64,000 nucleotides of DNA from Deltaproteobacteria bacterium (GCA_040218735.1 JAVJQW010000023.1:192001-256000), one strand, 5' to 3'. Positions 23,579 through 33,284 are shown, numbered from the stretch's first letter. Program-made: numbers and translations. Notes: a model not told the origin generated them from the sequence alone.

Positions 23579-23633
23579 GGCGAGGATTCAACCACGGAAC
23601 GATCGCCGCCGGTAAGCGAGTCGCTCCGCGCGC

Positions 23634-24140
23634 TCATGCGCAGACGCTTCGAATCTCGTGCTCGATGGCCCGAGCGGCCTCCTTCGCGTCGGTGTCGTTG
23701 GAAACGAAGCGCCCGAAGTCCTTCGTGCGCTGCTCCGCGAGCTCTTTCCATGCGCGTCGAACGTCGTCCGAGGAGGTCTGTCGGCCTCTCTGCTTCGCGC
23801 GCTCTATTGCGACGTCCAGCGGCGTCCAGACGACGAACACCGACAGCTCTGTTTCCGCGTGTATTTGGGAAGTGAATCGCGCGATGTCCGTGGGGTTGCG
23901 GAACACGTAGTCGACGAGCACGAGCTCCGCGCCCATCTCTAGGTATGCGCGCGAGAGCGCTCCTGCAGCGCGATACGTAGATCCTCCTCCGAGGACGGCG
24001 CGGGCATCGGCCGGAGCGAAACGACGAACTGCGTCGCCATCGATGTACACGGCCTCGGGAAAGGCCTCCCGGAGTCGTTGGCAGATGGTGGTCTTCCCGG
24101 CGCCTGGCGGCCCGGTGATTATCGCAATCTTACCGACCAT
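23634..24140 (-). CDS. P-loop (AAA_33-like) small-molecule/nucleotide kinase
   Basis: Walker A GPPGAGKTT, YIDGD and lid motif RAKQRGR. Confidence 0.8.
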   Translation of the reverse strand: MVGKIAIITGPPGAGKTTICQRLREAFPEAVYIDGDAVRRFAPADARAVLGGGSTYRAAGALSRAYLEMGAELVLVDYVFRNPTDIARFTSQIHAETELSVFVVWTPLDVAIERAKQRGRQTSSDDVRRAWKELAEQRTKDFGRFVSNDTDAKEAARAIEHEIRSVCA

Positions 24141-24145
24141 GGCAC

Positions 24146-24216
24146 TCCAGACCCCAGCGAGCAGATCCTACCTCAGGCCGCGGTTCGGCCATCGGTTCTA
24201 CGTGGTGCTGTGGGAC
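24146..24216 (-). repeat. Highly degenerate attC remnant
   Basis: Minus strand GTCCCAC (one mismatch from the GTCCAAC expected for a cassette starting GTTGGAC) ... GTCTGGA. Confidence 0.3.
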
Positions 24217-24242
24217 AGGCGGCGTCGGCTCCATGGTCGCGG

Positions 24243-24830
24243 TTACGATCGCTGAAGCGCGCCGCATACGACGAAGTAGATGCGTCGCTCATCGTCGACG
24301 ATCCTCAGCGCGAGCGCCTTCGCGGTCATCTCGCAGCGCGTCGCGAGGTACGCGCGCTCGGTGTCGTTCGCGAGGCGGATGCTCTTTCCATCCCACCGCG
24401 CCGGGCACTCGACGTAGACGACGTCTTTGCAGAGCAGCTCGAACGTCGCGCCGGAGAAGAAGCCATCGTCGTCACCCTGGAGGACGAGGTCGGCATCTCG
24501 CCCCACCCACCGGAAGTCCATGGACTGTGGAAGCGTGTCGAGCATCGCGCGCGCGTCGTTCTCGAGCGCGGGGTCGAGCCCTGGCACGTTGGAATCCACC
24601 TCCCCGCGGGGAACGAAGCGCGGATCGTCGGGCCACACCCGTACAACGGCATAAGCGTCCGCCTCACGAGCGAGCTCCACCTCAACCAGCTCCCCCACTC
24701 TGAAGTCGTCGACCAAGGCGGCAGCCGCGTCGAAACGAAGGCTCGTCGCGCGCGGCGATGAGATCGTCCCGACCCCAAGTTCTCGATCCCACGACTCAAT
24801 GACCCAACCCACAATTGCTCCTTGTGACAT
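24243..24830 (-). CDS. Cassette gene: hypothetical protein with N-terminal cold-shock/OB-fold-like domain
   Basis: VIESWDRELGVGTI...FRVGELVEVEL resembles a CSD/OB fold; lies directly after an attC R' site. Confidence 0.6.
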   Translation of the reverse strand: MSQGAIVGWVIESWDRELGVGTISSPRATSLRFDAAAALVDDFRVGELVEVELAREADAYAVVRVWPDDPRFVPRGEVDSNVPGLDPALENDARAMLDTLPQSMDFRWVGRDADLVLQGDDDGFFSGATFELLCKDVVYVECPARWDGKSIRLANDTERAYLATRCEMTAKALALRIVDDERRIYFVVCGALQRS

Positions 24831-24853
24831 CGTGCAGCACCCTTCGCAGACAT

Positions 24854-24914
24854 GTCCAACACCCGACGTTCAGCGGGGAGGCGATGTATCCGCGACCTTG
24901 AAGAATCGTTGGGG
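24854..24914 (-). repeat. attC site
   Basis: Minus strand: CCCCAAC GATT CTTCAAG ... GCTGAAC GTCGGGT GTTGGAC. Confidence 0.6.
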
Positions 24915-24990
24915 TCCATCAATTCGAATGCGGCTTGGGCGTCACGGCGAGTTGTGCGTCGCGATCAGTGTCCCGCGCGTCTGGGAGCTA

Positions 24991-25098
24991 GCTCAACCGC
25001 CACGGCGGGAGATGGAGTCTTCGAGCTGCGGCCGTACCCGGTACCACGCCACCGCGGCCAACGCGGCCGCTTCGGAGATCCTGGGCGCGTCGTTGGGC
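24991..25098 (-). repeat. Degenerate attC-like element downstream of the AlkB cassette
   Basis: Minus strand GCCCAAC ... GCGGCCG/CGGCCGC stem, GCAGCT, ... GTTGAGC; L'-R' spacing is abnormal. Confidence 0.35.
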
Positions 25099-25130
25099 GG
25101 CCCGCGGCGGACTATGCCGGTCATGGCATC

Positions 25131-25664
25131 TCAGGCCGCTACCAGATGCCGAAACGTAAGGCTGATGCGGGCGCCTGTCCCGGGAGAGGGACGAATCCCA
25201 TGCTGCCAGTCGGTCTGCACGCTCGCCTTCATGGCGAGAAGGGAGCCGGGCGCGAGTTGAATCGGCCACTCCGTGCCTCGGTCAGAACTTCGTCGAAACA
25301 GAAGTGAACGCGGGGCTCCGAGAGAGACGATGCTTGTGCTGGTGCCGGGCACCACTCCTTCCGCCGAGTCGGAGTGAAAGCCCATGCTCGACTCGCCGTC
25401 GTCATAGAGATTCGCAAGGCAGTTGTTGATGGTATGGCCGACGACGCGCTCGATATCGCATATGACCGGCTGGAGCAGTTCTGGAACTTCCGTAGTGGGA
25501 TATGAGTTCCCTGAGTAGTTGTAGGCGCGTCCGAAGGACGCAGTCTTGCGCGCTCGCATGCGGTCGTTCCAGGCGAACGTCCGCATCGCTTCGGCAAAAA
25601 GGGCGGCCGGATCGGCGATGAACGCGGCCACGTACTCGACCTCGAGGTCCTCTGGGAGATTCAT
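25131..25664 (-). CDS. Cassette gene: AlkB-like 2OG-Fe(II) dioxygenase
   Basis: NNCLANLYDDG, MGFHSD (HxD), IVSLGAPR, WQHGI and RISLTFR motifs. Confidence 0.9.
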   Translation of the reverse strand: MNLPEDLEVEYVAAFIADPAALFAEAMRTFAWNDRMRARKTASFGRAYNYSGNSYPTTEVPELLQPVICDIERVVGHTINNCLANLYDDGESSMGFHSDSAEGVVPGTSTSIVSLGAPRSLLFRRSSDRGTEWPIQLAPGSLLAMKASVQTDWQHGIRPSPGTGARISLTFRHLVAA

Positions 25665-25691
25665 GCCGAGCTTCACCTGTGCACCCTGGTC

Positions 25692-25755
25692 CGCCAACGC
25701 TCACAATAAACTAAGGGAGCTAAGCCCCCCTCAGTCTTCATTTGTGCTCTTGGGT
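25692..25755 (-). repeat. attC site (diverged copy of the 61-bp family)
   Basis: Minus strand: ACCCAAG AGCAC AAATGAAGACTGAGGGGGGCTTAGCTCCCTTAGTTTATT GTGAGC GTTGGCG. Confidence 0.7.
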
Positions 25756-25772
25756 GTCCCGCACCAGCTCAG

Positions 25773-26042
25773 TCATGCGGCCAGGAGTGGCGCCAGGTCT
25801 GCCGACTCGACGGGCTTGGCCCCGAGTTTCTCAAGAAGAGTATTCAGTGGAGCGAGCTGCACAGCGGCCGGGTCGAGAATCTCGATACCAATCGGTGATC
25901 CATCCTCGGAGAAGTCGACAACAAGGGAGTCGTCGAAGCGCTCAACACGAGCGCTCCGCACGTCCCTTGCTCTTGGGAGATACAGATAGGCTGCGAATGC
26001 CTTGCCGCGTCGGAATGTAACTTCAAGATAGCAGCGCTTCAT
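25773..26042 (-). CDS. DUF2283-family putative antitoxin
   Basis: AAYLYL...LVVDFSEDGSPIGIEIL motif; directly downstream of the DUF4258 gene. Confidence 0.85.
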   Translation of the reverse strand: MKRCYLEVTFRRGKAFAAYLYLPRARDVRSARVERFDDSLVVDFSEDGSPIGIEILDPAAVQLAPLNTLLEKLGAKPVESADLAPLLAA

Positions 26043-26048
26043 GACTAA

Positions 26049-26321
26049 TCACTCATTGGGAAATGCGGTGACGATGACCAACAGCTCGACGTCCGGATCG
26101 GGTTCGACAATAACGGTCCAGAGTCGCTTGTCGTGGCGCGTGCCAACCGCCCAACGGCCAACGACCTTGTCTTCGTCCAGCTCGTTGGCATCGAACAGCA
26201 TCTTCCTCAGGTCGACCTCCCCGAAGCCGCGGTCCTCCATCCGGCGCTCGACGTGCGGCGTCAGCTCGAGGTCCCAGTCCCACCACCCCGGCCAGTGCTG
26301 CTGTGCCTTGGTCCGCGTCAC
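26049..26321 (-). CDS. DUF4258-family putative toxin (RelE-like)
   Basis: LTPHVERRMEDRGF...WTVIVEPD...VIVTAF motif. Confidence 0.85.
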   Translation of the reverse strand: MTRTKAQQHWPGWWDWDLELTPHVERRMEDRGFGEVDLRKMLFDANELDEDKVVGRWAVGTRHDKRLWTVIVEPDPDVELLVIVTAFPNE

Positions 26322-26443
26322 GCTCCATCACGTACCATACAGCTTGCATTCCCGCCGTCCCGGACGCCAGGGGTCTGTAAGACTCTGAAACCGCAAGCGA
26401 AACAGCGCGGCGCCTGGCCGGGCTCGCCTCTCGGCGCTGGTTC

Positions 26444-26579
26444 ACCCAACGCCCTGGTGTTCAGCTGCGAAGCGCTCGCGCCGGCGGCGTTCGCGCGGGG
26501 CACGGTGCTCGGTGCCAGACCCTCCGGCGTTCGAGCGTAGCACGCGAGTGCTTCGTCAGACTGCAACATCTTGTTGGAC
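26444..26579 (-). repeat. attC site (136 bp)
   Basis: Minus strand: GTCCAAC AAGAT GTTGCAGT CTGACGAAGCACTCGCG ... CGCGAGCGCTTCGC AGCTGAAC ACCAGGGC GTTGGGT. Confidence 0.88.
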
Positions 26580-26596
26580 GGCCACGCACACCTCGC

Positions 26597-28576
26597 TCAC
26601 TCCAAGGTCTGCTTCCGTATGTACTCCGACATCGCTGCCGACATCCCTTCTGGAAGCTCAGAGTCGTCCTCGCTTAGATCGTATTGCGAGCCCGTTACCT
26701 TCGCACGCCATTTACCCTCGCTGTCTACCCCCCAAAGGAACGCCTTCGCGCTCTCGTTGGGCGCCACACCAAGGGACACGCCATGAGTTTCTGACCAATA
26801 CTTCTGGGTACTCCGGCTTACAACCAGGCCTTGAGAGGAGAGCCTGTCTTCGATCAGTCTAGTTGTTTCGGCAATTTCTTGAGATACTTGCGAGAAAATA
26901 TCGGCGGTCGATAGAGTTTCAAGAGACGTCGCTGGCAAGTCCCATGTGAAGACAATGAACCCAGCATGTGTCTCAATCGCCGGCGCAACGTTGAGCACCA
27001 TCGCTGATTCGGCGTCGAGTTCATCAGACATGACTTCTTCGTCGCATGTCCATGCGGCGAGGATCTGAATCTCTCGCGAGGAAGGCCTAATTGGAGATGG
27101 AAGCGTGTCCGGGAAGTGCATTATCTCCGCGGTGGAGTGCGTGATTGCGTCCACTGATGGAAACACGTCATGGGACACAAGCCCCACCATGTGGCGCGCC
27201 TGAGTCGGGTCAACCACCCGAACGTCTTCGAGGGCCTGCAGTGCTTCGTGCACCCTTGCGAGTACTTTGCCTGTGTCGGGAATCAATTCTTCCATTGGAT
27301 TCACCCGAAACGAGCGCGGGATCCGTCCATCAGCCAGGAGCGAGCCATCGAACCATGCGCACAAGTAGGCACTCTCGAATGTCCATGGCCAGCTCCGGTC
27401 CGGGGCTGGCACATCAGAGAAATGCCAGTGTTCGGGGTCCTCCTTGACCAACGCAAAGAGGGACCTGTTCCAGCCGAGCGCGGTCGCCTCCGCTTCGGAT
27501 CGAAGCTGAGCCTGCAGTGTTAGACTCGGCCGTCCCACAATCTGGTAGCTTGCCAGAACATCCAGAGATGGCTCAAACAGGCGTATCGCGCCTCCTTCGC
27601 TAACTCGGGCGTCGCACGTGAAAGTCCAGTCGCCCGGGAGCTCAATGAAGAACTCGGCTTCGTCGACGGCAGGAGCGTTTGTAGACTTGACGAACGAGAC
27701 AGGAGCCTGGTCGATCTGCGTCATCGCGCCGGCGCGTTCTCCTTCAAGTGACGAAATGATTGGTCGGCCAACACGCACCGTTATTCTTGGATATTCGCTG
27801 GCGACCCACTCTGCGACGGACCTGGCCACGCAAGCCATTAGCGTCGGCAACTCGAAAAGGTCAACATCACCAAGAAGAGATAGCTCCGTGCCGAAGATCT
27901 CCGGACCCTCACCTTCCTCTGCTGCGAGCGGCTCTGGGTACCTATACGGCTCGAATCGAGTGGTCGCAAGTGCGCCCGGCGAGAACACAACCGAAAGGCT
28001 CGGGAAGACGGCCTTGATGTCGGCGATCACGCTATCCAGGCTTAACTTGGAGCGCAACATGTAGGGCACGATCGGTAAGTCAGACGTGTGTTCGCGAACT
28101 AGGATCGGGAGGTTGAGGGCATTGCCAACTCGATCAACCGAGACGCCGTCGAACCACACGGATCTAAGGAGGGGATTCTGAAGAACCTGCCGCGCCAATT
28201 GGTCTCCGTCAATGAACCGAAGTTCAAAGTCAGGATAGTCGTTGATGTACTCGCGCTTGGCCTGCGGGGATACTTTCGCGTTTGTCACGAACAGTCCTCG
28301 TGCATAGCCCATTTTCAATAGGGCTAGCGGGAGTTCACCAAGTTCGGCACTTGAACAGGTCGCAGACGCCTTCCTGTGGTGTTTGCACTGGGCCACAACA
28401 TCGCGACCATCGGGGGCGCTCGCGTGGACATCACGTCCACCGTCGCCAGGACCATCAGTGATCGTCACGCGCCTATGGCCGGATATCCAGAGCAAGTCGG
28501 CCGTGAGTCGAACGAGCTTGCTCGGGTCAAGGCTGTAGGTGAATCGCGTGAGATCCGTTTCGCCGGCAAGAGACAT
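26597..28576 (-). CDS. Cassette gene: N-terminal Mrr-like PD-(D/E)xK restriction endonuclease domain plus large unknown C-terminal region
   Basis: TDGPGDGGRDV...VVAQCKH, GLFVTNA and FIDGDQL motifs. Confidence 0.8.
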   Translation of the reverse strand: MSLAGETDLTRFTYSLDPSKLVRLTADLLWISGHRRVTITDGPGDGGRDVHASAPDGRDVVAQCKHHRKASATCSSAELGELPLALLKMGYARGLFVTNAKVSPQAKREYINDYPDFELRFIDGDQLARQVLQNPLLRSVWFDGVSVDRVGNALNLPILVREHTSDLPIVPYMLRSKLSLDSVIADIKAVFPSLSVVFSPGALATTRFEPYRYPEPLAAEEGEGPEIFGTELSLLGDVDLFELPTLMACVARSVAEWVASEYPRITVRVGRPIISSLEGERAGAMTQIDQAPVSFVKSTNAPAVDEAEFFIELPGDWTFTCDARVSEGGAIRLFEPSLDVLASYQIVGRPSLTLQAQLRSEAEATALGWNRSLFALVKEDPEHWHFSDVPAPDRSWPWTFESAYLCAWFDGSLLADGRIPRSFRVNPMEELIPDTGKVLARVHEALQALEDVRVVDPTQARHMVGLVSHDVFPSVDAITHSTAEIMHFPDTLPSPIRPSSREIQILAAWTCDEEVMSDELDAESAMVLNVAPAIETHAGFIVFTWDLPATSLETLSTADIFSQVSQEIAETTRLIEDRLSSQGLVVSRSTQKYWSETHGVSLGVAPNESAKAFLWGVDSEGKWRAKVTGSQYDLSEDDSELPEGMSAAMSEYIRKQTLE

Positions 28577-28650
28577 ACCTTTGCGTCCTCATCAGAGCGC
28601 CGAAGTATCGGGGAGTGTAGCACTCGTTGGCTAAGGCGGCCACCTGGTCC

Positions 28651-28712
28651 GTCCAACGCTCACGTTCAGCTGCGGGGCGAAGCCCCGTCAGACTTGAGTG
28701 TGTTGTTTGGGC
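28651..28712 (-). repeat. attC site
   Basis: Minus strand: GCCCAAAC AACAC ACTCAAGT CTGACGGGGCTTCGCCCCGC AGCTGAAC GTGAGC GTTGGAC. Confidence 0.9.
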
Positions 28713-28724
28713 CGCCTTCCTGGG

Positions 28725-29459
28725 CTACGGCGGAGGCAGGCGAAAGTCTATTGCAAGCGCTTCGCAGACCTCGTTCAGCGCTTCCTCGGCGGGCTTCCAT
28801 CCGCCGCAGCAGTCCGGACTCATTGCGATCGTCAGTGCGATGCATCGCGTAGAATCGACGAGGCGACGAAGTTGTTCTGCGAGAGTCTCGACGGCCTTCC
28901 TGTGCCAGAAGCGGGGATTGGAGTCGGCGGAATCCTGAAAGAAGAAGAGGTCGAGATCGAGGTTCACGATGAAGTCGCCGTGCTGAAGAACGCAGTAGCC
29001 CATCAGGTCGGGTACTTTCCATAGATCGATTTCGACGACGTCTACCTCAGGGAGGTCTTCCTTTCGGATGCTCCCGCACTTCTGCGTCACAAAGACGAGA
29101 TTCTCCACGGTGTCTTCGTACTCATGGAGGTAGAGCGGCAGGTAGTTGTCCCAGCGTAGCACGCGACCGGAGCGTGGGTCCTCATTAGGAATGACCGAGT
29201 CGAGGAAGAACTGAATATCGCCAGTCCAGCGCCCCTTCAAGGCTGGCGACCACTCCGCGATTCGCGAACTGAGCATGTCGTAGTGCGCATCAAGGTGGAG
29301 AATGGAATGTGAGCCTCGCGTGTGTCGGGCCCAGCACCATGCAGCGGCCTGATGGTTGTCCATGATGTAGCGATTGCCATCGCTCCATAAGAAGCACTGC
29401 TTGTTCACGCCTGATTCACCCCGACCAAGAAAGGGGATATGCCACGTCGGTTGAGCCAT
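28725..29459 (-). CDS. Cassette gene: UPF0489-family protein (arginase/deacetylase-like metal-binding fold)
   Basis: YIMDNH, ILHLDAHYD, DNYL, LDLDLF and TIAMSP motifs; the track's GTG start at 29510 lies inside attC, so ATG 29459 is preferred. Confidence 0.75.
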   Translation of the reverse strand: MAQPTWHIPFLGRGESGVNKQCFLWSDGNRYIMDNHQAAAWCWARHTRGSHSILHLDAHYDMLSSRIAEWSPALKGRWTGDIQFFLDSVIPNEDPRSGRVLRWDNYLPLYLHEYEDTVENLVFVTQKCGSIRKEDLPEVDVVEIDLWKVPDLMGYCVLQHGDFIVNLDLDLFFFQDSADSNPRFWHRKAVETLAEQLRRLVDSTRCIALTIAMSPDCCGGWKPAEEALNEVCEALAIDFRLPPP

Positions 29460-29497
29460 CTCGCTTGCTTTGAAGAGGATAGCACGGGCTTCGGTCG

Positions 29498-29558
29498 GCC
29501 CAACGCTCACGCTAAGCTGCGGGGCGAAGCCCCGTCAGTCTTGAGCGTGTTGTTGGGC
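29498..29558 (-). repeat. attC site (61 bp, canonical)
   Basis: Minus strand: GCCCAAC AACAC GCTCAAGA CTGACGGGGCTTCGCCCCGCA GCTTAGC GTGAGC GTTGGGC. Confidence 0.93.
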
Positions 29559-29603
29559 GGCACGGCGCATCGTTCATACGGGAAGTCGCTCGTTGGTTCG
29601 GAG

Positions 29604-30338
29604 CTAGTCGTCATCCGGAAAGATCCGCATTGCTGGCCCGCCATCGAGCCAGGTTCGTTCCAGTCGACAGAGGCGACCGACTGCGGCTTGGCGCCGAAGG
29701 AGGTGCTCTGCTTCCTTCCCGGAGAGGTCGGACCAGTCGTGTCTCACAAGTTTTCCGCTAACATTCTCGTCAAGCCATCGACGGAGTTCGAGCACCAGCG
29801 GTTCTGGGGCAACCCGGGTCGGTTGGCCACGCTCCAGGACGAACTCGATAAGCCAACGGCTCGGCGGGGGGACCCGTGTCTCACCATCGTGGTTTCGGAG
29901 GTCGCCTAGATTGGCATCACCGACTCGGACGGTGGCACTCTCAAGTGAGTCTGAGGCGTGCGCCAACTCGAACACGAATTGGGCAGGAACCCGCCACATG
30001 CGTCTCTCGTCAGCGCACCAAATCGCTCCCGTCGCGAGAACACTTCGGTCGCCGACTAACTCGAAGTGTTCGATCTCGAGTCCATCCTGCCAGTAGCCAG
30101 TAGTCTCTTCGTGGTCACGCCAATGGAGCCAGAGTAGTCGCAAGATCTCCGGCCTAAGCAGCGACGTGTCGGCCGGACTAACGTCGTTTCGGAACTGCCG
30201 CCAAACGGCTACGACCTGCGCTTCAAGTTGCGCAAAGTACTCTGGGTCGGCGTAGATCATCGCTGTACTTGTCCGCCCAACGCTACATGTTCGGCCTTGG
30301 AGATCCTCAGGCGTACCCGAGATATCACCGTCGGACAT
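29604..30338 (-). CDS. Cassette gene: hypothetical protein
   Basis: 244-aa ORF with lower GC, followed by the canonical attC. Confidence 0.6.
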   Translation of the reverse strand: MSDGDISGTPEDLQGRTCSVGRTSTAMIYADPEYFAQLEAQVVAVWRQFRNDVSPADTSLLRPEILRLLWLHWRDHEETTGYWQDGLEIEHFELVGDRSVLATGAIWCADERRMWRVPAQFVFELAHASDSLESATVRVGDANLGDLRNHDGETRVPPPSRWLIEFVLERGQPTRVAPEPLVLELRRWLDENVSGKLVRHDWSDLSGKEAEHLLRRQAAVGRLCRLERTWLDGGPAMRIFPDDD

Positions 30339-30399
30339 AACGCGTTCTGCGCCCGCGCCACCACCCCACGCGCATCACCACCAACCTCACGCCACCGAC

Positions 30400-31374
30400 T
30401 CAGCAGCACCCGCCCCCACCATAGAAATAAGTACTCCCAGTCACGAACAGATCCCCCCGCCCCAGCGCCTCCAGCGCCCCGGCGGTCTTGTCACACACGT
30501 TCAGCGGCATGTCGCGCACCAGCGTATGCCCCTTCCCGTCGTCGAAGACCTCATCCTTCCCGAAGTAAGTCGCCGTCCGCCCCGTGAAAATACAAGCCCC
30601 GTCCTCCGGTACCGGGTCCTTGATCGCGCAAACCTCGATGCTCTCCAGCAACAAGTGCGCGTCCAACCCATACCGCTCCTTGTCCAGCAAGCGATAAGGC
30701 ACCTTCGACCGGAGCTCGATCGTTCCGAACCCAGCCTTCACCATCGTCGCCAGGTACTCATCCAGGGTCACCGCGCCCGAGATGCACTCCGCGCGGAGGC
30801 GGTCGTCGGCTGCGAGGTGGTCCGGCATCGGGCGCGTCGCGACCGGGTCCGACATGATGAGTCGGCCGTGCGGCTTCAGGACGCGGTGCATCTCCGTGAG
30901 CGCCTTCAGGAGGTGCTCGCGCGTGAAGATGTTGAAGAGGCAGTTCTGCGCCGCCGTGTCGACCGAGCCCGACTCGATCGGCAGGTCCAGCGCGTTGCCG
31001 CGGCGAATGTCGACGAACTCAGGTGAGAACCAATCGTTCTCCAGCGCCGCCACCTCCAAGTTCGCACGCGCCTTGTCCATCATCTCGTCCACGGTATCCA
31101 CCGCGATGACACTCGACGGGCGACGCGTGAAGTACGCGAACTGAAGCGCCTCCATCCCGCCGCCGACGCCGACGTACAGGACCGTCTGCTCCGGACCCAG
31201 GTCCTTCGCGTTCACCGTGGTGCCGCAGCCGTAGTTCATCTCGAGCATCTGCGTCGGGATGTTCAGGCCCGGCATGCGCCAGACCGGGGAGGTCGTGCAG
31301 CACAGCTTGGACATCGGCGCCTCGGCGGCCTCGCGGTAGAGGTCGTCGACAGCCGACAGATAATTTTCGTTCAT
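30400..31374 (-). CDS. arsM: Arsenite methyltransferase (type associated with arsenosugar biosynthesis)
   Basis: N-terminal LCC, NYGCG, SAM motif LYVGVGGG, QNCLFN, ECISGA and C-terminal GGGCC. Confidence 0.8.
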   Translation of the reverse strand: MNENYLSAVDDLYREAAEAPMSKLCCTTSPVWRMPGLNIPTQMLEMNYGCGTTVNAKDLGPEQTVLYVGVGGGMEALQFAYFTRRPSSVIAVDTVDEMMDKARANLEVAALENDWFSPEFVDIRRGNALDLPIESGSVDTAAQNCLFNIFTREHLLKALTEMHRVLKPHGRLIMSDPVATRPMPDHLAADDRLRAECISGAVTLDEYLATMVKAGFGTIELRSKVPYRLLDKERYGLDAHLLLESIEVCAIKDPVPEDGACIFTGRTATYFGKDEVFDDGKGHTLVRDMPLNVCDKTAGALEALGRGDLFVTGSTYFYGGGGCC

Positions 31375-31383
31375 GAGATCTCC

Positions 31384-32085
31384 TCAGTTGTCGGAACCGC
31401 CGCCGCCCGCGACTTCTCCGGCAAACTTTCGGGACAACAGGATCTCGCGGCCACGCATTTCCACGAAACCACGCTTCTGGAACTCGGACAGGACTCGACT
31501 CACCGTCTCACGGCTCGTCCCGATCATCGAAGCGATGTCCTGCTGCGTCGGACGCTCGCGGATGAGGATGCCCTCCTCCACCTCTTCGCCGTCCTTCTTC
31601 GCCAGGTCGATCATGATGTGCGCCACGCGCCCATACACGTCCAACGTCGCCAGGTTCCCGATGATCTCGTCCGCGCGACGCAGACGCCGCGACAGCTCGG
31701 CCATCACGTTCAACGCCGTCGCCGGACTCACCTTGATGTGCGCCGCGAACTGCTCACGCTTCAGGATGAGGACCGTCGAGTCCTCCAGCGCAATCACGTT
31801 CGCCGAACGCGGCAGGTCGTCCAACAACGACATCTCGCCGAAGAACTCACCCGCCTTCAACAGACCCAGGATCACCTCCCGACCGTTGTCGCCGTAGATC
31901 GAGACCTTCACCCGGCCCTTCGCGATGATGAACAGCGCGTCACCCGGCTCGTCCTGCGTGACGATGTGCGCGTCCTTCGTGACGTCGCGCGTCGACAAGA
32001 TGCCGGCGATCCGGCTCAGCTCTTCGGCCTCGACCTCGTGGAAGAGGGACACCTTTTGCAGCAACTCGGTGTGATCGTTGGACAT
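31384..32085 (-). CDS. Crp/Fnr family transcriptional regulator
   Basis: cNMP domain (FFGEMSLL, PRSA) and HTH (TQQDIASMIGTSRETVSR). Confidence 0.95.
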   Translation of the reverse strand: MSNDHTELLQKVSLFHEVEAEELSRIAGILSTRDVTKDAHIVTQDEPGDALFIIAKGRVKVSIYGDNGREVILGLLKAGEFFGEMSLLDDLPRSANVIALEDSTVLILKREQFAAHIKVSPATALNVMAELSRRLRRADEIIGNLATLDVYGRVAHIMIDLAKKDGEEVEEGILIRERPTQQDIASMIGTSRETVSRVLSEFQKRGFVEMRGREILLSRKFAGEVAGGGGSDN

Positions 32086-32120
32086 GTCAGCGCGGGTTAT
32101 CCCAAGAGCCGACGGCCCCG

Positions 32121-33284
32121 TCAACGCCGGTGGGCGTAGTAGCGCTTCATCGTGTGGCGGAAGTCGCGCAAGGCCCCGGTGTCCTCGTGCGCCTCCTCCA
32201 AATCCGCGAACTCCTCCAACAACGCCCGCATCCGATCCGTCATCGCCTCCGGCGTCTGGACGACCAACCGAACCCGCTGATCCCCCGCCCCTCGACCGTC
32301 CGGACGCGGCAACCCCTTGCCCTGCAACCGAAACACCCGACCGTTCTGCGACCCCTCGGGCACCCGCATCCGCATCGGACCGTCCAACGTCGGGATCTCG
32401 ATCGGACCCCCGAGCGCCGCCGTCGTCATCGACACCGGCACCTCCACCAACAGGTCCGCCCCATCACGCTCGAAGAACGGGTGCGGCCGCACCGTCACCA
32501 CCACGATCAGATCACCCGTCGATCCGCCGCCACCACCGGAGCGCCCCATCCCCCGGAGCCGCAACCGCGTCCCCGTCGTAACGCCCGCCGGCACGTCGAC
32601 CGTCACCGGCCGATCCACCTCCTCGACACCCGACCCCTCACACACGTCACACGCGTGCGCCGCGAGCTTGCCCGCACCATCGCAGTCGGGACACCGCCGC
32701 GTCGTGTCGAAGAAACCTTGCTGCTCGCGCACCGCCCCTCGACCACCGCACCGCTGACACAACACCGGCGCGCTCCCCGGCGCCGCACCGGTTCCACGAC
32801 ACGTCCGACACGACGCCTCACCCGGCACGTACACCACGTGCTCCGTGCCCTGCACCGCCTCCTCGAAGTCGATCTCGAGGTCGTACTTGAGATCGTCACC
32901 ACGCTCCCGCGGCTCCGACCGCGGACGCGGCTGCACCCGCTCGCGCCGCTGACGCTGCTGATTCTTCTCCTTCCGCTGCTTCGCGCGCGACGTGCCGAAC
33001 AACTCATCGAGCACGTCACCCGTCGCCTCCGTCTTCGCCTGCGGAATGCCGTGACCGCCGCCGCCGACCTCAGCCTGCCGATACGCGTCGTACTGCGCGC
33101 GCAGGTCCACGTCGCCCAAGACGCGGTAGGCCTCGGCGGCGTCCTTGAACTTGTCGGTCGCCGTCTCGTCGCCGGGGTTGCGGTCGGGGTGGTACTTCCG
33201 GGCGAGCCCGCGGTACGCCTGTTTGATCTCGGCGGGGCTCGCGTCGGTGCCGACGCCGAGGATCGCGTAGAAGTCGTCGCTCAT
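32121..33284 (-). CDS. dnaJ: DnaJ chaperone
   Basis: J domain with HPD, four CxxCxGxG zinc-finger repeats, C-terminal substrate-binding domain. Confidence 0.93.
   Translation of the reverse strand: MSDDFYAILGVGTDASPAEIKQAYRGLARKYHPDRNPGDETATDKFKDAAEAYRVLGDVDLRAQYDAYRQAEVGGGGHGIPQAKTEATGDVLDELFGTSRAKQRKEKNQQRQRRERVQPRPRSEPRERGDDLKYDLEIDFEEAVQGTEHVVYVPGEASCRTCRGTGAAPGSAPVLCQRCGGRGAVREQQGFFDTTRRCPDCDGAGKLAAHACDVCEGSGVEEVDRPVTVDVPAGVTTGTRLRLRGMGRSGGGGGSTGDLIVVVTVRPHPFFERDGADLLVEVPVSMTTAALGGPIEIPTLDGPMRMRVPEGSQNGRVFRLQGKGLPRPDGRGAGDQRVRLVVQTPEAMTDRMRALLEEFADLEEAHEDTGALRDFRHTMKRYYAHRR

Follow-up and report, generated by a model that had tools for sequence, protein, structure and literature searches.

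Integron cassettes are excised by recombination between two attC sites of a folded bottom strand and inserted by attI × attC recombination at the head of the array, as outlined by Cury et al. 2016 (NAR, PMC4889954). According to the same survey, half of all integrase-less integron cassette arrays (CALINs) sit in genomes that encode an integron integrase (IntI), and most have no intI pseudogene nearby; integrase loss, rearrangement and secondary-site insertion are the origins it offers. IntegronFinder, as described in that paper, seeks only attI of classes 1–3 and only by exact match, so that heads resembling a resident attI are not normally assessed. A limited literature search, which is no proof of absence, found no description of integrase-less chromosomal arrays with an attI related to a resident one. 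Here we describe a CALIN on the minus strand of a 64-kb window, the whole stretch of DNA analysed (contig C9, 192001–256000, of an 11.6-Mb draft genome in 70 contigs, G000, of a Deltaproteobacteria bacterium, GCA_040218735.1). The array lies downstream of arsM, an arsenite methyltransferase gene. To judge from sequence, the heads of at least two arrays without an integrase are similar to the attI beside the genome's only intI, and the array of the window probably represents an orphan attI platform on which an integrase acts in trans.

We searched for attC with two covariance models (CMs). The first, R1, was trained on the 15 attC of contig C28 only, and the second, R2, on 28 attC of the genome, all outside the window. 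In addition, the 28-site alignment was cut into a left and a right half, and a separate half-site hidden Markov model (HMM) was built from each. Weak sites were sought at CM E ≤ 2 or 10 and at nhmmer E ≤ 50. Every significant attC match of the window falls within 24854–29560, on one strand (minus). The sites, in order from the head, are the following.

29496–29560, minus strand: attC a1; R1 71.5 bits, E 2.5e-17; R2 74 bits, E 1e-19
28649–28714, minus strand: attC a2; R1 40.1 bits; R2 44.6 bits; 89% identity to a1
26442–26581, minus strand: attC a3, a long form of 140 nt with ~85 nt extra between two conserved arms
25691–25756, minus strand: attC a4; R1 19.4 bits, E ~0.01; R2 22.2 bits, E 7e-4
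24852–24916, minus strand: a5, a decayed attC with the 3′ arm only (24876–24854), right-arm HMM E 4.6e-5

The architecture is that of attC: inverted R″/R′ cores (RYYYAAC … GTTRRRY), an imperfect stem and extrahelical bases on one strand. The folds of a1 and a2 have three bulged bases in the 5′ arm of the minus strand, and on the plus strand the same two sites reach CM scores of only 18.7–22.4 bits (R2: 20.6 and 18.7), against 74 and 44.6 bits on the minus strand (R2). The strand preference of the CMs and the position of the bulges thus identify the minus strand as the top strand, as expected with open reading frames (ORFs) on the minus strand; all genes between 23.6 and 31.4 kb lie there. The R″ of a4 reads CCCAAG and not ..AAC. 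A site homologous to a4 in G007, a relative of a different genus, scores 27.1 bits by CM, and the best unrelated R2 match in the window has 17.6 bits (E 0.017).

Neither R1 nor R2 found a3, probably because its length exceeds the scan window of the CMs. Its left arm (26581–26555, HMM E 8e-7) is the best left-arm match in the window, its right arm (26469–26444) has an HMM E of 5.6e-3, and both align with the attC at C67:343374 and C28:74. The ~85-nt insert between these otherwise conserved arms is GC-rich and self-pairing. Site a5 was also found by neither CM, and its left arm has no HMM match. A CALIN is defined by at least two attC recognised by a sequence-plus-structure CM; the window has three that are found by CMs not trained on it, besides a fourth with HMM matches in both arms and a fifth with a match in one arm only. 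The preliminary description of this DNA, made from the sequence alone, had placed attC at 29498–29558, 28651–28712, 26444–26579 and 25692–25755, and all four are borne out, a1, a2 and a4 by the CMs and a3 by the arm HMMs. Of its fifth site, at 24854–24914, only the 3′ arm held. A regular-expression-plus-fold scan of the whole genome for palindromes returned 32 loci, many plainly unrelated; neither sensitive nor specific, it was dropped.

The array has no adjacent intI, as had been described. A tblastn search of the window with the IntI of contig C28 found no intI remnant (best E 0.19), and all matches to TIGR02249 are on other contigs. The sole match above cut-off in the genome, at C28:134263–135204 (455.5 bits, cut-off 265), belongs to an open frame of 428 aa with no internal stops. 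Directly downstream of this intI, and co-oriented with it, come 15 near-identical palindromic attC of 65–68 nt that run off the contig end. The window attC share their sequence and structure family with them, which gives the integrase in trans, earlier only conceived of, a concrete candidate. The complete integron spans C28:134263–143933; its attC are ~90% identical to each other and its array continues on a 2.3-kb contig, C15. The C28 intI is co-oriented with its cassettes, opposite to the usual divergent layout.

When a circular cassette is opened at the G|TT of its own attC, the TTRRRY half of that attC's R′ box comes to stand first, so that pairing is expected between the leading box and the R″ of the same cassette. 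On C28 the pairing extends over 9/9 positions for 15/15 cassettes, while non-own pairs average 7.3/9. We applied the rule to the window, which yields these units.

29504–30280, minus strand: cassette 1, 777 nt; ORF 29604–30260, 218 aa from an internal ATG
28657–29503, minus strand: cassette 2, 847 nt; UPF0489 protein, ORF 28725–29510; PF12640 E 2.3e-8
26450–28656, minus strand: cassette 3, 2207 nt; 659-aa protein, ORF 26597–28576, with an N-terminal Mrr-type restriction-endonuclease domain; PF04471 E 8e-15
25698–26449, minus strand: cassette 4, 752 nt; DUF4258 (26049–26321) and DUF2283 (25773–26042), both by Pfam
25131–25697, minus strand: ORF of cassette 5, 2OG-Fe(II) oxygenase; PF13532 E 2.7e-21

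Leader and R″ pair at 9/9 positions in cassette 1 (GTTGGGCGG with CCGCCCAAC), in cassette 2 with a 1-nt indel, and in cassette 3 (GTTGGACGG with CCGTCCAAC). The spacing of a1 to a2 equals the 847 nt of cassette 2. That each leading R′ complements its own R″ had been claimed from the outset; the motifs quoted then are all present and the claim holds for cassettes 1–3, whereas cassette 4 pairs at 7/9.

An independent view of cassette 4 comes from the 30 relatives that we compared by DNA search. The region 25696–26450 of the window is 83% identical to a cassette of G007, which lies there ~5.7 kb downstream of an intI and co-oriented with it. The homology opens at the leading GTTGG and closes at …GAGC|GTT, with unrelated flanks on both sides. 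The changes in leader and R″ from one copy to the other compensate each other: G007 has GTTGGATGG with CCATCCAAC, the window GTTGGGTGA with CACCCAAG. The G007 integrase (C14:91442–92128, 267 bits) matches model positions 2–230 of 315 only, in an open frame of 283 aa, and may be truncated. By the G007 homology, by the leader/R″ rule and by the joints seen at the cores in metagenome contigs (see below), the cassettes are discrete units that end at the G|TT crossover.

Their contents (Mrr-like nuclease, toxin–antitoxin-like pair, oxygenase, ORFans) are typical of integron cassettes. The ORF of cassette 1 probably starts at ATG 30260; it has no family match in Pfam, NCBIfam or PADLOC, and the ESM Atlas gave no usable match. 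The DUF4258/DUF2283 pair of cassette 4 is a putative toxin–antitoxin pair. In cassette 5 the listed TTG start falls inside the R′ box and the true start is probably a few codons further in; the oxygenase also has a weak PADLOC match, CARF_2OG. No cassette gene has a paralogue elsewhere in the genome. The GC content is 55–62% across cassettes 1–4 (25.2–30.2 kb), against 68.8% genome-wide.

The pairing rule also sets where the array begins, at G|TT 30281|30280. This first junction is 119 bp past the arsM stop codon (30400–30402); the distance of about 60 bp given before had been counted from the start of a 244-aa ORF that crosses the junction.

30273–30305, minus strand: attI-like head; 24 nt (30305..30282) starting GATCTCCAAGGCCG, followed by the crossover box GTTGGGCGG (30281..30273)

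At the first-cassette junction, C28 reads …GATCTCCAAGACCGCCGACTTGGT|GTTGGACGG and the window …GATCTCCAAGGCCGAACATGTAGC|GTTGGGCGG. In register, the window head is identical to the C28 attI at 16/24 positions and at 13/14 in the starting 14-mer, with the same 24-nt spacing to the crossover. The shared motif is GATC-N-CCAAG-N-CCG, 24 nt before GTTGG, its letters within the 30273–30305 site being GATCTCCAAG. With R at the variable position, the 14-mer has seven occurrences in the 23 Mb that the two strands of the genome make up; together with the crossover box, it occurs only in C28 and the window. The statement that the array lacks a recognisable attI is not supported as it stood.

As a control, each of the 19,536 GTTGG occurrences in the genome had its 24 preceding nt compared with the C28 attI. 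The scores average 7.3 (sd 2.4), a background from which the window site, at 16/24 and among the six best, stands out significantly. The second-best site, C24:499, has 21/24 (30/40 over a longer span) and belongs to a second array with no intI. Its head (C24:1–600) carries three tandem motif copies of 23–24 nt (GATCGCCAAGAC…), stands downstream of co-oriented pseudopilin-like genes and is followed by one cassette that runs off the contig. The start of C24 overlaps that of C39 by 141 exact bases, and C39 (1–1100) then carries three attC; the C24 leader GTTGGGCTG pairs 9/9 with the first R″ on C39, CAGCCCAAC. The heads of C28, C24 and the window form a three-way alignment, with the shared 14-mer at an identical distance from the crossover. 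The window site holds the position of an attI, at the head of the array and with its crossover in a GTTRRRY box outside any attC, and we infer from sequence that it acts as one.

The exact 24-mer of the head has zero matches in metagenome contig and genome contig collections. A degenerate head pattern was tried as well and gave at least 119 stretches per collection; among the matches listed, 0/238 loci have an IntI or attC match, and the pattern was rejected as returning chance matches.

The head bears on two alternatives. Firstly, the cassettes could have entered at an ordinary GTT of the attG type, later ones following by attC × attC recombination; the likeness to the C28 attI would then be coincidental and the site without special affinity for IntI. 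Loot et al. (10.1101/2022.09.11.507474) show insertion driven by IntI at many genomic sites that have only a GWT consensus in common, and propose it as the origin of small CALINs. In the control two apparently unrelated sites reach 17/24, and beyond 24 nt the upstream flank of the window has no similarity to C28. Nevertheless, a 14-mer of such rarity stands at exactly the same crossover distance in C28, C24 and the window, a head motif longer than the GWT that attG sites would share, and different first cassettes at the same junction in two metagenome studies, X2 and X3, indicate repeated use. We consider a chance secondary site decidedly unlikely.

Secondly, the array could be an inner piece split from the C28 integron by inversion or translocation, without a head of its own. 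Rearrangement is among the CALIN origins listed by Cury et al. 2016 (PMC4889954), the attC family is the same as that of C28, and a multicopy repeat is found at many contig ends. An inner piece is at odds with the upstream boundary, where in place of an attC we see a match to the R′ box only, with no left arm and a right-arm E of 5.3. It is at odds, too, with the lack of paralogues of the cassette genes elsewhere in the genome and of any repeat or insertion sequence flanking the array. We find this explanation barely credible. The repeat itself, of ~400 nt or more, occurs at or near dozens of contig ends with 77–100% identity (e.g. the C39 end, the C67 start and C9:780769–781042); probably it represents a multicopy insertion sequence at which the assembly breaks up.

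Further attC of the genome comprise a lone mid-contig site, SALIN-like, at C59:123647–123710, and two array tails at contig ends with two attC each, C67:342721–343443 and C28:74–1935. Counting these, array tails in the genome outnumber the known heads.

Variation among strains was followed in assembled metagenome contigs (not reads) of the Logan collection, from four studies, placed on 23600–31400 at ≥90% likeness. A 44.9-kb X2 contig matches 30275–31400 with 7 differences in 1126 nt; 1052 other letters then replace cassette 1 (716 nt skipped) before an a1-like attC follows. A 379-nt X3 contig matches 30282–30644 and goes on with a different cassette leader. In another X3 contig, of 363 nt, the start of cassette 4 is joined to an a1-like attC across the shared 6-nt core, and a 741-nt X2 contig has cassette 4 alone. 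Site a1 is of a type abutted by many flanks, with loose ends at 29494–29504 and 29556–29567 in all four runs. The arms of a3 surround a 19-nt centre in an X10 contig. An X3 contig of 1164 nt (24984–26146) has r1, an attC-like palindrome treated below, cassette 5, a4 and cassette 4 contiguous and unbroken at ~98% identity. From these contigs, close strains carry different cassettes at the head, which points to natural cassette turnover there.

This turnover bears on a third alternative, a fossil array. On that view an integron that was once complete would have lost intI, replaced for instance by the arsM segment, and would have been inert since, decaying from the distal end, with the attI-like site as leftover attI. 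Site a5 keeps one arm and two further palindromes of the distal part, r1 and r2, are unrecognisable; arsM stands co-oriented at the place that intI has on C28; an attI without intI is the expected residue of integrase loss, which figures among the CALIN origins listed by Cury et al. 2016 (PMC4889954). On the other side, the window has no intI pseudogene, the genome has an IntI of the matching attC family, and a1, with its 71.5 bits by R1, is within the 55.9–93.6 bits of other genuine non-training sites. Moreover, three different first-slot cassettes occur in three sources in which arsM is 99.4% identical, and such differences among near-identical strains require recombination after the strains diverged. 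We judge a fossil unlikely. The proximal part of the array is not a fossil, and only the distal part is decayed. The term “fossilising”, applied earlier to the whole, fits the distal third (a5, r1 and r2) and does not fit the proximal cassettes, which have intact attC and a first slot that varies between near-identical strains.

The distal end and the genes on either side of the array comprise the following.

31384–32124, minus strand: Crp-family regulator
30400–31374, minus strand: arsM, arsenosugar-type arsenite methyltransferase (NF038099 516 bits, cut-off 400), upstream of the array and co-oriented
24991–25098, no strand assigned: r1, unconfirmed attC-like palindrome downstream of cassette 5, with core-like boxes at both ends
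24243–24830, minus strand: ORF6, 195 aa, no family match
24146–24216, no strand assigned: r2, unsupported as attC
23634–24140, minus strand: P-loop kinase, AAA_33/zeta-toxin-like, 168 aa, by Pfam; just beyond the array

Neither r1 nor r2, both listed as weaker attC remnants by the preliminary description, has a CM or half-site HMM match at any threshold used. The R″-like box of r2 agrees with the ORF6 leader at 8/10 positions, with an estimated chance probability of ~0.04. A 42.7-kb X2 contig has the kinase and ORF6 genes at 94–95% identity (ORF6, 94% conserved, is joined there to the kinase gene) and lacks 99 nt at 24148–24246 that contain r2. In the same contig 585 other letters replace 24842–24988 (147 nt), which contain a5, and homology in r1 is limited to 24989–25089, breaking at both r1 core boxes. 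In our reading, the exchanging part of the array ends near a5, and r2 is not an attC. ORF6 has no family in Pfam, NCBIfam or PADLOC and no usable ESM Atlas match, and it was not found in 30/30 relatives searched; it represents a cassette fixed long ago or else the first gene beyond the array. The kinase has a weak PADLOC match, mad8, and only weak matches (30–31% identity) in 2/30 relatives. ORF6 and the kinase are taken as cassettes that became fixed long ago or else as sequence that originally followed the head. Scanning for promoters and terminators was uninformative, with counts equal to those of shuffled sequence.

On the other side, arsM starts 9 nt after the Crp stop codon, with its own Shine–Dalgarno sequence. 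We considered arsM as a cassette and rejected it on these grounds and because neither the Crp–arsM gap nor the stretch from arsM to the head contains an attC. In the same-genus G001, the closest genome searched, the flanks are 82–84% identical (efflux/membrane-fusion gene to 20947, Crp gene from 31406 on), and between them lies 1.2 kb with one unrelated 314-aa gene, against 10.4 kb in G000. This gene stands between Crp and the efflux operon at G001:C1434, 1944–2888. The whole 10.4 kb, missing from G001, is thus accessory: the M10 peptidase, AHSA1-domain and lipoprotein genes, the kinase, ORF6, the array and arsM. The homology ends 22 nt inside the 3′ end of the Crp gene, which indicates that the insertion remodelled the C-terminus of Crp.

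The best explanation, which we regard as reasonably probable, is an integrase-less platform with an attI-like site, five attC-bounded cassettes and a decayed tail, served in trans by the C28 IntI. The integrase would act on the window array from its own locus, excising cassettes by attC × attC recombination of the folded bottom (plus) strand. The circles would be inserted at the attI-like site downstream of arsM, which would work through the GATC-N-CCAAG-N-CCG motif at its fixed distance from GTTGG, as in the C28 attI. Promoterless cassettes would be transcribed by read-through from the co-oriented Crp–arsM genes. More broadly, and with more doubt than belief, we suggest a distributed integron, in which the one C28 integrase may serve at least three attI platforms, namely its own on C28, that of C24/C39 following pseudopilin genes and that of the window following arsM, each behind a co-oriented host operon.

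Several points weigh against service in trans by the C28 IntI. The likeness to attI is short, and two genomic sites with 17/24 in the control are apparently unrelated. The window head lacks the three 23-nt direct repeats present at C24. The head motif is in none of 80 foreign intI loci (one unrelated partial match, L078), nor does it occur downstream of the intI loci L022, L023, L025 and L026 of family genomes; its role thus rests on three sites of one genome. As to the attC, the CM score of a4 is marginal, a3 is recognised only through the half-site test, and the CMs were trained on attC of the same genome and not on the general IntegronFinder model. The draft genome, 96.5% complete, has an estimated contamination of 4.65% and is split into its 70 contigs, with the array (C9) and intI (C28) on separate ones; the tetranucleotide correlation of C28 with C9 is 0.998. 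The short metagenome contigs (363–379 nt, depth ~5) could derive from other organisms or contain errors and are given less weight, and one of them reads CTTGG, not GTTGG, at the junction. Finally, ORF6 and the kinase of X2 are 94–95% identical, against 99.4% for arsM, so that the X2 pieces may stem from more than one strain.

For the origin and activity of CALINs this locus offers a concrete, testable case. It usefully combines an attI-like head, a sister locus, a matching integrase elsewhere and head variation among near-identical strains, and it lends itself to measuring whether satellite platforms are served in trans by an integron integrase. Work on it would also help in defining the attI motif of a poorly studied integron clade, in which intI is co-oriented with the cassettes. 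If the integron is indeed distributed over several platforms, the expression of captured cassettes would follow host regulatory inputs that differ from platform to platform, and many CALINs would count as actively used satellite platforms and not as debris.

Compared with known systems, the locus is closest to the CALINs of Cury et al. 2016 (PMC4889954). It shares with them at least two attC within 4 kb, no nearby intI, an IntI elsewhere in the genome and a small size, the average there being 5 attC per CALIN. It differs in its recognisable head, like the resident attI, and in the second such head of the same genome; the resident-attI-like head, the sister locus and the natural turnover at the head are less ordinary for a CALIN. 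With the attG and SALIN insertions of Loot et al. (10.1101/2022.09.11.507474) it has in common cassettes outside a complete integron, a GTT crossover and the need for an integrase in trans. As characterised in that preprint, attG sites share GWT only and are unlike attI in sequence and structure, whereas the window site has a longer resident-attI motif and is apparently reused. With the sedentary chromosomal integron on C28 the array shares the attC family, the 9-bp leader/R″ rule, an upstream gene co-oriented with the cassettes and the head motif 24 nt before the crossover. Both hold mostly cassettes of unknown function, a toxin–antitoxin-like pair and a nuclease among them. In contrast to C28, where intI adjoins attI and array as in any complete integron, the window has arsM in the position of intI, about five cassettes and a decayed tail.

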